Origin: an uncultured Myxococcales bacterium
GTDB taxonomy: Bacteria; Myxococcota; UBA727; JABDBI01
Reading direction: 5' to 3'
DNA length: 64,000 bases
Assembly: GCA_964368985.1 (NCBI GenBank)
Contig: CAYJDW010000002.1
Location: forward strand, 28,171 to 92,170
Part shown: one piece after another, positions 10,379 through 13,214 of the stretch
Numbering within the stretch: position 1 is the first letter of the stretch
Layout: the number at the start of each line of letters is the position of its first letter
The notes under the pieces: model-generated
What the model was told of the DNA's origin: nothing
Databases searched by the model: none
The model's input: the letters and a program-made list of their open reading frames with translations, nothing else
Translations under genes and position numbers: made by a program

Positions 10379-11530
10379 ATGAGATATTTATTTTTTGTGA
10401 CTTGGTTATTAGTAGGGTTTTTTCCTATCTCGTGTGGGAATAAAGGATCATCGGATTCTTCGAATTTTTCGAATCCTGCGAATACTTTTAATCCCAGTCC
10501 TAAGGTTGAGAGTAAATGTACCCTAAAGAATCAGGATCAATGCGAACTAAATATTCTTGATAATTGTATTTGGAACTTCGATCGCTGCATGAATAAAATT
10601 CTTGAGTATGCGCCTGTCGTTCCGAAAGAGCTCGGAAAAGTGAAAATGGTGGCCGTTGGTAAGGGTTTTTGCGCTATAGATATGAATGATGAGCTCTGGT
10701 GCATTCCTCAATCCATTTTAGAACGACAAATTCTTCCCCGGCCAACGAAAAAATATCGCCATGTCGCTATGGCTATAGATGCAGTATTGAGGAGTAAAAT
10801 TTGCGCCACTGAACTTGATGGCACAAGTGTCTGTTTCGACAAAGGAAAAGAGGAAAAAGGCCCCACCACAGATAAAGTTCTAGAGACGATTCCTTCTCCC
10901 CACCACGATACGATCTGTGCTTTTTCGCAGAAGAAACTCTATTGCGAGTCAAACCAAAAAGCTTTTGAAAAACTTGATGATTTTTCGAATGACCCCGATA
11001 TCCAAAGGTGGGCTAAAAAGAACGCCACTGATGCCATGCCTGATTTCCAAAAAATTGCTTTTTTGGGATCAAATTATGGTAGTGATGCAAAGAAATTTTT
11101 TACCGCATTTTCCAGTTCAAAAGTCCTCGTAGGCGTTCGGGATGATACTAAAGCAAGTCTTTGGGATATGGCAAAACTCGGTAGTGGGCGCGCTGCAATA
11201 TATGAAGATATTTTAAGTTTTAGCACTTATAATGAGGCTTATTGTATCATTGCCGAAGATAAAAAAGGATTAGTTTGTGATGGTGGAAAATATCACAGTT
11301 TAGTTGATACTCCTAAAGATATTCAAAATGCTGACTTGGTTCAGGTGGCCACGGCGTTGGAGCATACCTGCGTGATCCTTAAGGGCTCCGGCGAGCTTAA
11401 ATGTTGGGGAGCCAAGAGAAAAATTAAAAATATGCCGCCAAATCTCTCTGGCGTAAAGCAAGTTGCCGTGAGTGAAGAGATGACTTGTTTTATTGACAAA
11501 GCCGATATGCTGAATTGTTTTGGCGAATAG
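10379..11530 (+). CDS. Cys-rich lipoprotein with RCC1-like (regulator of chromosome condensation) beta-propeller repeats
   Basis: It has a signal peptide plus lipobox (FFPISCG). Recurrent HTCVILKGSGELKCWG, FCAIDMNDELWCIP and MTCFIDKADMLNCFG motifs match the RCC1 blade consensus (hTC.l..dG.v.CWG). Confidence 0.5.
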   Translation: MRYLFFVTWLLVGFFPISCGNKGSSDSSNFSNPANTFNPSPKVESKCTLKNQDQCELNILDNCIWNFDRCMNKILEYAPVVPKELGKVKMVAVGKGFCAIDMNDELWCIPQSILERQILPRPTKKYRHVAMAIDAVLRSKICATELDGTSVCFDKGKEEKGPTTDKVLETIPSPHHDTICAFSQKKLYCESNQKAFEKLDDFSNDPDIQRWAKKNATDAMPDFQKIAFLGSNYGSDAKKFFTAFSSSKVLVGVRDDTKASLWDMAKLGSGRAAIYEDILSFSTYNEAYCIIAEDKKGLVCDGGKYHSLVDTPKDIQNADLVQVATALEHTCVILKGSGELKCWGAKRKIKNMPPNLSGVKQVAVSEEMTCFIDKADMLNCFGE

Positions 11531-11887
11531 TTAGTTTAAGCGCTGCGGATTAATACCTATTTTAGTGTTTGTGCCAAGCATAATAGTCAGTCCATGAAAA
11601 AGGCTTGGTAAGAGCGGGATTAAGTTTATAATGGGTATTAAATCGCAGGCCAAGGCTGCCAGCGCGATGCTGCCCAATTGGGGTTTATTAATTTGGCGGC
11701 CCCGTAGAAAACTTATCCCCACGGCCAGGCCTAAAGATAAAGCATGAACGCTAAAACCCCAGCGAGCCTGATCGGAAAAAATATTGGCCATCATGGAATT
11801 CGAGCCCACCCAAGGCAGTATATAGCTGGGGAGGATGAGGATTGTGTAGGCATAAAAAAACCATTGTCGTTTAAAAAACTCAAACAT
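11531..11887 (-). CDS. Hypothetical small membrane protein
   Basis: Three or four predicted TM helices. No motifs. Confidence 0.35.
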   Translation of the reverse strand: MFEFFKRQWFFYAYTILILPSYILPWVGSNSMMANIFSDQARWGFSVHALSLGLAVGISFLRGRQINKPQLGSIALAALACDLIPIINLIPLLPSLFHGLTIMLGTNTKIGINPQRLN

Positions 11888-12063
11888 AGGAGCAACCTCA
11901 TCATGCGGGCTAATAAAATTGTCAGGTGGGGATTAATAACACTTTTTAGCAATTTAACCATTAGGAGGGCCGGGCCAATCAACCGTGCTATTAATTAATA
12001 CAATTCAAGACATTCCGAGCTTGCTCACATTAATATAAATTGTCACAAAGAGGGAGCTAGCGC

Positions 12064-12504
12064 ATGTATAAGCAATGGTGTGAATTTTCTTTTATTCTTA
12101 AGCCATCTACCCGCGGCGGTGTCGGGGTTTTTGCGACTCACCCGATCATTGCGGAATCTCCAATTTTTCATCGCCCTTTTACTATGAGAATATTGGCCAT
12201 CAACGAAATTCCACCTGCGCTACGTCAATATTGTATCTATATTAATGAGGAAGAAGCTATTTGTCCTGAGCATTTTGCCCATATGGAGATTGCCTGGTTC
12301 ATCAATCATTCCGACCAGCCTAATATTATGAGACGTATGCCTATTCGTAACTTTGGGGCAGCAAATAAAATGGATACTCTTAATGATATGAAAATGCGGT
12401 CAATGTATTCTATTAAAAATATTGAAATGGATGAAGAAATTTTGATTGATTATAATCATTTGAATGAACCCGAGCATTTGAAAGAAGATTATTATCGAAG
12501 ATAA
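12064..12504 (+). CDS. SET-domain protein (putative protein-lysine methyltransferase)
   Basis: GGVGVFAT N-terminal SET motif, INHSDQPN (the NHSCxPN box) and a C-terminal EEILIDYN (the ELxxDY box). At 146 aa it is the size of a minimal SET. Confidence 0.65.
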   Translation: MYKQWCEFSFILKPSTRGGVGVFATHPIIAESPIFHRPFTMRILAINEIPPALRQYCIYINEEEAICPEHFAHMEIAWFINHSDQPNIMRRMPIRNFGAANKMDTLNDMKMRSMYSIKNIEMDEEILIDYNHLNEPEHLKEDYYRR

Positions 12505-13214
12505 ATTTGGCGATGGCTTTTTAGCAAAGGCCATTCGGGGAGGTCAGCCTCAAAATCAGCAGAGGGCCCTGCCCATGCTTTCTGACCATTTATTAGAATC
12601 AGCAGATCTCCGCCTAAATAGTTCGTCTCCGCCAAATCGTGACTAATAAAAATAATCGTCAAGCGATCATTCACGACACTTTTTAGCAATTTAACCATAG
12701 CTAGCCTCAAGACCGTATCAAGTCCTGAAAAAGGCTCGTCCATGATCAAGAGGCGCGGATTGCTGGCCATCGCTCGGGCGAGCGCAAGGCGTTGTTGCTC
12801 GCCTTGGGACAATTCATGGGGACGTCTCGTTTTAAGATTGTCGAGCTGGAAAGTCACTAATAGCTCGTCAATATTTAACGCTGTTGGCGCGAAAGAGCGG
12901 GTGAGTAAAAGAGTCTGGATAACACTTAGATGCGGCCATAGGCTCAGGTTTTGCGGCACATAGGCAAAGCGTCGTTTAGAGATTGGGGAGGTGATTTTAT
13001 TATCGTGTTGCAGCAGTTCTTCATAAAAATAAATTTTGCCGGCGACATTAAAGCCAGTCGCCAAGCCTAAAATAGTACGGGCCAGGGTGGATTTACCGCT
13101 CCCGGAAGGCCCCATGAGGGAGAGGATTTTGCCGCTTGGGACCGAGATATTAATGCTTTTGAGGATGGGGTGGGAAGAGGCGTTTACTGATAGGTTTTCG
13201 GTTATAAGGCCCAT
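12492..13214 (-). CDS. ABC transporter ATP-binding protein
   Basis: Walker A GPSGSGKST, signature LSQGEQQRL, Walker B LLIMDEPFSGLD. Confidence 0.85.
   Translation of the reverse strand: MGLITENLSVNASSHPILKSINISVPSGKILSLMGPSGSGKSTLARTILGLATGFNVAGKIYFYEELLQHDNKITSPISKRRFAYVPQNLSLWPHLSVIQTLLLTRSFAPTALNIDELLVTFQLDNLKTRRPHELSQGEQQRLALARAMASNPRLLIMDEPFSGLDTVLRLAMVKLLKSVVNDRLTIIFISHDLAETNYLGGDLLILINGQKAWAGPSADFEADLPEWPLLKSHRQIYLR

Follow-up and report, generated by a model that had tools for sequence, protein, structure and literature searches.

A family of uncharacterised single-domain SET proteins in uncultured, mostly host-dependent bacteria

The window, a 64-kb stretch of DNA from an uncultured member of the Myxococcota, carries a gene for a 146-aa protein that consists of a SET domain with short flanks. 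The gene is real and its assignment to the SET domain is correct and robust: the identical protein is encoded on 16 contigs and homologues, of which there are 143, reach down to an E value of 2e-47, so that the protein stands far above chance. It belongs to a family of uncharacterised single-domain SET proteins found almost exclusively in uncultured bacteria, most of them host-dependent. Judged by its conserved residues, it is very probably an active protein-lysine methyltransferase. The reading that we prefer goes further and holds that this active lysine methyltransferase acts outside the cell that produces it, on a protein of a host or prey organism; to that complete statement we assign a probability of about 40%.

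The gene, its motifs and its fold

The features of the gene to which the text refers are as follows (coordinates are those of the window).

12064..12504, plus strand: SET-domain coding sequence, 146 aa, with ATG start and TAA stop (17.4 kDa, pI 5.96)
12050..12056, plus strand: Shine-Dalgarno-like GAGGGAG, 7 nt 5' of the ATG of the SET gene, read from the sequence
12118..12126, plus strand: G19-V20-G21, the GxG of SET motif I (AdoMet binding)
12229..12231, plus strand: Y56, the motif-II tyrosine
12304..12324, plus strand: N81-H82-S83-D84-Q85-P86-N87, the NHSxxPN box (SET motif III)
12325..12402, plus strand: variable insertion (residues 88-113) that separates the NHS box from the last core strands, defined from two family alignments
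12433..12453, plus strand: E124-E125-I126-L127-I128-D129-Y130, SET motif IV (ELxF/YDY type), with catalytic Tyr130
12466..12495, plus strand: E135-Y144, EPEHLKEDYY, a conserved family-specific C-terminal tail in the place of a post-SET segment
12492..12504: 13-bp convergent 3'-3' overlap between the SET gene and an ABC ATPase gene (12492-13214, minus strand)

A sequence-only reading of this DNA had described the product as a minimal SET protein, and this description is borne out: in all 146 residues Pfam finds SET and no other domain. The Pfam search that had been named beforehand as the result on which the assignment would stand or fall returns SET (PF00856) with 39.9 bits (E 6.2e-10), where the gathering cut-off is 22.4, and residues 19-131 match model positions 1-105 of 105. 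The three strings on which that reading was built, GGVGVFAT (residues 18-25), NHSDQPN (81-87) and EEILIDYN (124-131), are all present. The last of these, which had been taken for a post-SET-like motif, is instead motif IV of the SET core and contains the catalytic tyrosine, Tyr130.

Conservation within the family is concentrated on these elements. Across an alignment of 41 family sequences G21, F23, P68, N81, H82, S83, N87, E125, I126, E135 and P136 are invariant. G21 belongs to motif I, whose G19 is conserved in at least 90% of sequences, and N81, H82, S83 and N87 to motif III; E125 and I126 fall in motif IV, where D129 and Y130 are conserved at 90% or more, and Y56 reaches the same level. 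E135 and P136 open the C-terminal tail, in which E137 and K140 are conserved at 90% or more in the same alignment and Y143 equally so in a second one; the motif EP[ENDGQK] is found in 157 of 173 family members.

The alignment of the NHS and tyrosine residues, a further check that had been proposed, was carried out with HMMER against solved SET domains. The NHS box falls on NHSCxPN in Clr4 and MLL3 and on NHSKDPN in vSET, while Y130 aligns with the catalytic tyrosine of the ELxF/YDY motif in all three enzymes (EEILIDY with EELTFDY of Clr4, EELCYDY of MLL3 and EEITISY of vSET). The GxG of motif I is matched by GGYG in vSET and by GLG in MLL3, and Y56 pairs with the tyrosine of YMF in MLL3; as a tyrosine of the YxG-type motifs it is expected to lie in the active site, as in SET domains generally. 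Comparison of the family profile with vSET by hhalign (using a vSET sequence entered by hand) gave a probability of 97.8% with 29% identity over 98 columns, and the profile also aligned by HMMER to the PDB's own vSET chain.

An AlphaFold2 model of the protein, computed from the 41-sequence family alignment, has a mean pLDDT of 89.1 and a pTM of 0.81, and no segment of it lies below 50. When the PDB was searched with this model using Foldseek, vSET ranked first (3kma; E 4.4e-8), followed by Plasmodium PFL0690c and then by MLL1/MLL3 and SET7/9, all with a probability of 1.00. The model and its matches strongly support the assignment of the predicted structure to the SET fold. Sequence and model likewise support an intact AdoMet pocket with two putative active-site tyrosines. 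The insertion at residues 88-113, which is short or missing in many members of the family, is predicted somewhat less well (pLDDT 81-85) and includes a helix at 102-110.

The protein has just three cysteines (C6, C57 and C67), none of them past the catalytic tyrosine, and its C-terminus reads NHLNEPEHLKEDYYRR. Neither a CxCx4C post-SET cluster nor a cysteine-rich pre-SET zinc cluster was found in the 146-aa sequence, as follows from this cysteine count, and no classical nuclear localisation signal or basic cluster was seen in it. A promoter and terminator scan gave nothing that exceeded the expectation from shuffled sequence, and an Rfam scan of the whole 64-kb window found no RNA family.

Carriers, phylogeny and genomic context

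The 16 public contigs that encode the exact protein (the longest is 1.25 Mb) share a constant neighbourhood. Six of these loci, from several samples, were compared; their SET genes show no more than one synonymous base of difference, a variation too small for an analysis of selection among close strains to be informative. The nearest relatives that are not identical share 57% of residues. The 143 homologues were collected at E ≤ 1e-3; among the matches listed, all except one fragment carry PF00856 as a single domain, and they measure about 100-190 aa, mostly 125-190. An exhaustive profile search of 1.84 billion representative proteins returned 447 clusters at E ≤ 1e-10, of which 58 reach E ≤ 1e-30. 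Domain fusions in this wider family are rare and mixed, comprising tandem SET domains, a cupin, a weak GNAT and, once, a giant polymer-synthetase; they give no guide to function in the clade of the window protein.

The sequence-only reading called SET proteins rare among bacteria, but by 2014 SET genes had been recorded in more than 500 bacterial genomes, those of free-living bacteria included (PMC3980110). A pattern-seeded scan of one genome per species across 185,579 species, which gives a lower bound biased to closer relatives, located 54 loci. All 54 lie in metagenome-assembled genomes (MAGs), and no isolate genome is among the species matched. About half of the loci belong to Patescibacteria (Saccharibacteria, Parcubacteria/Paceibacterota, Doudna-, Yanofsky-, Wildermuth- and Taylorbacteria). 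Another six bear a Chlamydiota label (Rhabdochlamydiaceae, Rhabdochlamydia, Simkaniaceae or unclassified), three belong to Babeliales, and ten come from Gamma- or Alphaproteobacteria or Pseudomonadota MAGs, one of which is labelled Coxiellaceae. Three more are MAGs of Verrucomicrobia type, two so labelled and the third named 'Ca. Acheromyda pituitae'; this trio groups with a Chlamydiae sequence at 78% bootstrap. Two loci (L007 and L012) are Myxococcota, making three carriers in that phylum when the window is counted, and the remaining loci are singletons. The single archaeal locus is also the weakest match of the scan (E 2e-4), and Bacillota contributed no locus among the 185,579 species. Most of the 54 loci carry the labels of lineages known to be host-dependent. 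The known hosts of Patescibacteria are prokaryotes, either bacteria or archaea that lack histones.

The window protein, in a neighbour-joining tree, stands beside those of the two other Myxococcota, in a clade with Chlamydiota, Babeliales and Proteobacteria in which the phyla are interleaved; the Patescibacteria fall largely outside this clade. Only four small clades reach 70% bootstrap and deeper nodes lie below that value, so that the interleaved topology is no more than suggestive. Among 2.9 million viral contigs there were three weak relatives, at 30% identity, and the family is therefore not viral. An origin in a defence system or phage was considered on the same evidence and rejected, since PADLOC returned no match and PHROGs a single insignificant one (E 0.0012).

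The source of the window is an uncultured Myxococcota of activated sludge and not a known host-associated bacterium, unlike the carriers of SET proteins with which the sequence-only reading compared it. The RimO protein of the window is 80% identical to proteins from 'Myxococcales bacterium' MAGs, and remoter matches with names are labelled Myxococcota, Deltaproteobacteria or simply 'bacterium'. The window also encodes a DUF4215 repeat protein with nine repeat matches; such proteins are typical of myxobacteria. The 1.25-Mb contig that bears the identical SET protein, Ga0558120_00034, comes from JGI metagenome 3300056831, an identifier given for a MAG in a study of pilot plants for biological nutrient removal from wastewater.

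The SET gene has a GC content of 0.367 (0.333 at third codon positions), which ranks second from the bottom among the 31 genes; the window as a whole has 0.442. For a gene of 441 bp this is a weak sign of acquisition. It lies between the gene of a 118-aa membrane-like orphan and the ABC ATPase gene that overlaps its 3' end (ABC_tran, 105.8 bits). The genes further downstream are of a housekeeping kind (SpoU methylase, NlpC/P60, PTPS, S1 and RimO), while the region upstream, at 8.4-11.9 kb, holds four genes without a significant Pfam match, three of them below the GC content of the window. Pfam annotation of the neighbours places the three Myxococcota copies in three unrelated contexts: L007 follows a trypsin-like protease gene and a gene of no assigned function, and L012 adjoins glpX. 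An all-against-all BLAST of the open reading frames at the 54 loci and in the window found no recurrent neighbour gene, the sole recurring neighbours being generic ABC ATPases at six loci.

Two of the upstream genes had been read as further eukaryote-like domains. The protein called RCC1 (10322-11530) does contain one match to the RCC1_2 repeat; the match is, however, below threshold (19.7 bits against 22), and the N-terminus of the protein is lipoprotein-like. For the protein called a TcdB-like glycosyltransferase (8417-9808), resemblance holds at the level of a motif and of weak fold matches to a low-confidence model, but not at that of sequence matches, of which Pfam and the PDB gave none. 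This protein has only three homologues in 5.8 billion proteins, and they share an invariant D174-x-x-R177 ... Y191-x-D193-x-D195 pattern that resembles the ASDILR...YLDVD signature of large clostridial glucosyltransferases. Its AlphaFold2 model has a pLDDT of 58; NleB/SseK, YeGT and PaTox are among the best Foldseek matches, all of which have E ≥ 0.04 and TM ≤ 0.31, with unrelated proteins ranking alongside the GT-A enzymes. Motif and model are no more than suggestive of a toxin-type GT-A glycosyltransferase. Within the 64-kb window no secretion system is visible.

Taken together, patchy loci, interleaved phyla, low GC and orphan neighbours fit a horizontal acquisition of the SET gene, although each of these signs is weak by itself. 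Horizontal transfer has probably spread the family as a whole among its uncultured and mostly host-dependent carriers.

Export, target and alternative explanations

If the window protein is an enzyme, its chemistry would follow that of other SET proteins. S-adenosyl-methionine is most likely bound through the GxG and NHSxxPN elements, and the methyl group would be moved to the epsilon-amine of a lysine reached through a channel lined by Tyr56 and Tyr130. By analogy with the C-terminal flanks of vSET and SET7/9, the aromatic-rich EPEHLKEDYY tail may close the lysine channel or the cofactor pocket. Ile128 occupies the Phe/Tyr switch position of SUV39/MLL-type enzymes, a weak indication that more than one methyl group may be transferred. 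The family is acidic (median core pI 5.35), which fits basic substrates, and an acidic surface would favour them. The enzyme of the sludge myxobacterium may act on a basic protein of a eukaryotic microbe, either host or prey, for which histones are the obvious candidate.

The window protein itself has no signal peptide, and its N-terminus coincides with the canonical start of the family. Relatives of a different kind exist: 34-37 of 234 family members are extended at the N-terminus in a Sec-like manner, so that a basic n-region and a hydrophobic core, then small residues, precede the SET domain (for example MNKIILSGIYFIILITGFISA / EEQEWSEY). Some of these calls may be over-extended open reading frames in AT-rich genomes, given that 16 of the 37 candidates have a methionine near the canonical start. 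Seven extended members, however, have no Met, Val or Leu near that position, and with no alternative start available the extension in these seven is no artefact of annotation. At the genome loci such extensions were seen in Babeliales, in Proteobacteria and in a single unclassified MAG, and in none of the Patescibacteria. An AdoMet-dependent enzyme that is exported would be expected to end inside another cell, where AdoMet is available.

What leads us to prefer a target in a host or prey organism is the range of carriers, the existence of exported relatives and a locus that looks acquired. Methylation of host histones by the window protein is plausible, since most carriers of the family belong to host-dependent lineages and signal peptides are present in some members. 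The Patescibacteria, which account for about half of the carriers, argue for a non-histone or endogenous target, at least in their clade, because their known hosts lack histones.

The alternative that best survives is an endogenous lysine methyltransferase, a cytoplasmic enzyme that would act on one of the cell's own basic proteins, whether nucleoid-associated, histone-like or ribosomal. We regard this as a serious possibility, at odds somewhat short of even. A signal peptide is missing from most of the family as it is from the window protein, an acidic protein suits basic DNA- or RNA-binding substrates, and the SET gene of the window sits among genes for RNA and translation (SpoU methylase, S1 and RimO). 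There are precedents in cpnSET, which acts on Hc1, and in Go1-SET, which acts on MC1-alpha (PMC3980110). The many carriers among Patescibacteria, whose known partners are prokaryotes, point in the same direction. Several observations speak against this alternative. The 54 loci share no conserved neighbour and offer no candidate substrate gene; they include no isolate genome; and in the Myxococcota the gene is patchy, with only three carriers at three different loci, which shows that SET is not a core function of the lineage. The low GC of the gene relative to its genome also counts against it, and the convincing Sec signal peptides of some homologues are incompatible with cytoplasmic housekeeping in those members.

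It is highly unlikely that the protein is a SET-fold methyltransferase of a small molecule or non-protein polymer, in the manner of BurB, which acts on methionine. One distant member of the family (P0361, 2321 aa) does fuse SET to PGA-capsule, Mur-ligase and ATP-grasp domains of polymer synthesis; biosynthetic neighbours are absent, however, from the window locus and from the 54 others, the full motif set of lysine methyltransferases is conserved with both tyrosines, and identity to BurB is just 15%. We give next to no credence to a catalytically dead SET binding module, or a decaying acquired gene without current function, for although the open reading frame is isolated, low in GC and apparently acquired, it is full-length, has a ribosome-binding site and the canonical N- and C-termini of the family, keeps cofactor and catalytic residues that are intact and conserved family-wide, and encodes the identical protein on 16 contigs with at most one synonymous base of difference across six loci.

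Action on a host or prey protein, the reading we prefer, can be extended to a wider picture, which we hold to be doubtful. Bacteria with a life in or on other cells, namely Chlamydiota, Babeliales/Dependentiae, Legionellales-like Proteobacteria and Patescibacteria, would, on this extension, draw upon a pool of horizontally exchanged minimal SET effectors that are sometimes exported by Sec. The SET gene would then mark a low-GC (44%), apparently small-genome Myxococcota lineage of activated sludge as one that lives with protists, hitherto unrecognised, as their associate or parasite and methylates the chromatin of its host, and the GT-like and RCC1-like orphans would form part of the same picture.

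RomA, NUE, BaSET and BtSET make up a small and much-studied set of nucleomodulins that alter host chromatin. For the SET fold the window protein brings nothing mechanistically new; it does lead to an uncharacterised family of bare SET domains in uncultured and mostly host-dependent carriers, many of them Patescibacteria. A literature search returned nothing specific on this family, on a reduced-genome symbiont among the Myxococcota or on 'Acheromyda'. If the proteins are exported and act on those of host or prey, then the catalogue of epigenetic effectors would widen far past cultivated pathogens, and the gene would provide a genomic marker for hidden symbiotic lifestyles, the Myxococcota included. 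If the target is endogenous, this would imply regulation by lysine methylation in reduced genomes.

Comparison with known SET proteins

The closest likeness is to vSET (A612L) of Paramecium bursaria chlorella virus 1 (PDB 1N3J/3KMA), which is also a minimal single-domain protein, of 119 aa as compared with 146; vSET works as a homodimer and is specific for H3K27. The resemblance follows from the lack of any reader, targeting or zinc-cluster domain. Both proteins are without pre- and post-SET zinc clusters, both carry GxG, NHSxDPN and EEIxIxY motifs, and both have an aliphatic isoleucine two positions before the catalytic tyrosine. By form the window protein falls in the vSET-like class, having a single SET core of no more than 150 aa, no accessory domains and homology to vSET. 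The two differ in that vSET is viral whereas the present family is essentially absent from viral contigs, and in that, within the family, the stretch between motifs I and III is longer by 25 residues, a variable insertion follows the NHS box and the EPEHLKEDYY tail is peculiar to the family.

The best match to a single sequence in the PDB is PFL0690c of Plasmodium falciparum (PDB 4RZ0; E 0.001), which likewise has 146 aa together with NHSDxPN and EILIxY motifs. It is a eukaryotic protein of similarly uncharacterised function, and identity over the aligned core is only 24-28%.

RomA/LegAS4 of Legionella pneumophila, an effector of the Dot/Icm T4SS with SET and ankyrin domains that methylates H3K14, has the same core motifs and shares the proposed logic of a eukaryote-type enzyme in an amoeba-associated gene pool. 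The window protein is about one third of its size and has neither ankyrin repeats nor an NLS-bearing N-terminus. Kinship with RomA/LegAS4 does not extend beyond the common domain: the NCBIfam equivalog model for AnkI/LegAS4 (NF043024) gives 15.1 bits against a cut-off of 550, with 35 residues matched, and the scores of the family profile against LegAS4, vSET, MLL3 and EZH2 are alike and weak, all of them about 32 bits. As far as sequence comparison tells, the window protein is not an orthologue of RomA/LegAS4, and LegAS4 stands no nearer to it than human MLL3 or EZH2 do. A distribution in a similar amoeba-associated gene pool, one lineage of Patescibacteria included, has been described for DOT1-like methyltransferases (PMC10117894).

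NUE (CT737) and cpnSET are small bacterial SET proteins as well, and Chlamydiota are among the carrier lineages of the present family. Both have basic NLS-like clusters at the C-terminal side, one of them near position 206-208 (KHRKKR), in addition to an N-terminal T3SS signal (PMC3980110). The position of that cluster makes them longer than the window protein, which, set against these descriptions, has 146 aa and no cluster of the KHRKKR type, and ends in EPEHLKEDYYRR. Go1-SET of Methanosarcina mazei, which methylates MC1-alpha, and BaSET of Bacillus anthracis, which methylates histone H1 (PMC3980110), are further stand-alone prokaryotic SET proteins that act on basic DNA-associated proteins, in their case from other lineages, the Archaea and the Bacillota. 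The chlamydial pair mirrors the two leading explanations for the family described here: NUE acts on the histones of the host, and cpnSET on the Hc1 of its own cell (PMC3980110).

Duplication and fusion within the SET family

Local duplication occurs within the family of uncharacterised single-domain SET proteins to which the window's SET protein belongs. A Saccharibacteria MAG carries two copies of equal length and with matching termini, approximately 2 kb apart:

L053 (genome locus), 2221-2613: SET copy
L053, 4182-4574: SET copy

Tandem double-SET fusions are present among metagenomic proteins, both in P0241 (325 aa), where the pair is preceded by a signal-peptide-like N-terminus, and in P0291 (305 aa). 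P0361 (metagenomic, 2321 aa), a distant member of the family, has its SET domain joined C-terminally to a giant protein with PGA_cap, GNAT, Mur-ligase and ATP-grasp domains, which is cyanophycin or poly-amino-acid synthetase-like. This fusion hints that amino-acid polymers are the substrate of some prokaryotic SET domains.

Lineage and genome character

One further protein of the window bears on its lineage:

35696-38359 (+): 887-aa protein with nine DUF4215 repeat matches

The DUF4215 repeat is typical of myxobacteria, and the protein thus agrees with the assignment to Myxococcota obtained from RimO, a housekeeping protein of the window. The GC-content of the lineage is approximately 44% and the longest contigs of the relatives represented by proteins P0126 and P0151 are only 2.3-2.5 Mb; these values are unusually small and AT-rich for Myxococcota. 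Given the low GC-content and the small contigs of its relatives, the lineage could have a reduced genome and, possibly, a dependent lifestyle.

Other genes of the window

9783-10160 (-): 125-aa ORF, signal-peptide-like in appearance
10322-11530 (+): 402-aa protein, GC 0.404
11531-11887 (-): 118-aa ORF, multi-pass membrane protein-like in appearance
20841-22460 (+): 539-aa orphan with the lowest GC of the window (0.317)
23359-31358: HlyD-like protein (sub-threshold), then a C39-peptidase ABC exporter, another ABC protein and a PLD-like phospholipase of 1012 aa

The two small ORFs alternate with the low-GC genes that precede the SET gene and are also called in public contigs of the same species; searches of Pfam, PADLOC and PHROG found nothing for either. 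The N-terminus of the 402-aa protein is lipobox-like (FPISCG), and the one RCC1_2 repeat in this protein is sub-threshold (19.7 bits vs a cut-off of 22): the protein may be a beta-propeller lipoprotein. The 539-aa orphan precedes the group that begins with the HlyD-like protein, and together they have the look of an export cluster of the type-I/bacteriocin style, next to proteins that may be secreted.

A possibly glycosyltransferase-like orphan

8417-9808 (+): 463-aa orphan, GC 0.381

This protein, which has a lipoprotein-like N-terminus (...LLMLNAC), is without any sequence match in Pfam or PDB and has only three homologues among 5.8 billion proteins. Its low-confidence AF2 model gives weak matches to the NleB/SseK, YeGT and PaTox glycosyltransferases (E >= 0.04). 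Invariant in the protein and its homologues is the pattern D174xxR177...Y191xD193xD195, which resembles the DXD signature by which toxin glucosyltransferases of the TcdB/Lgt type are marked.
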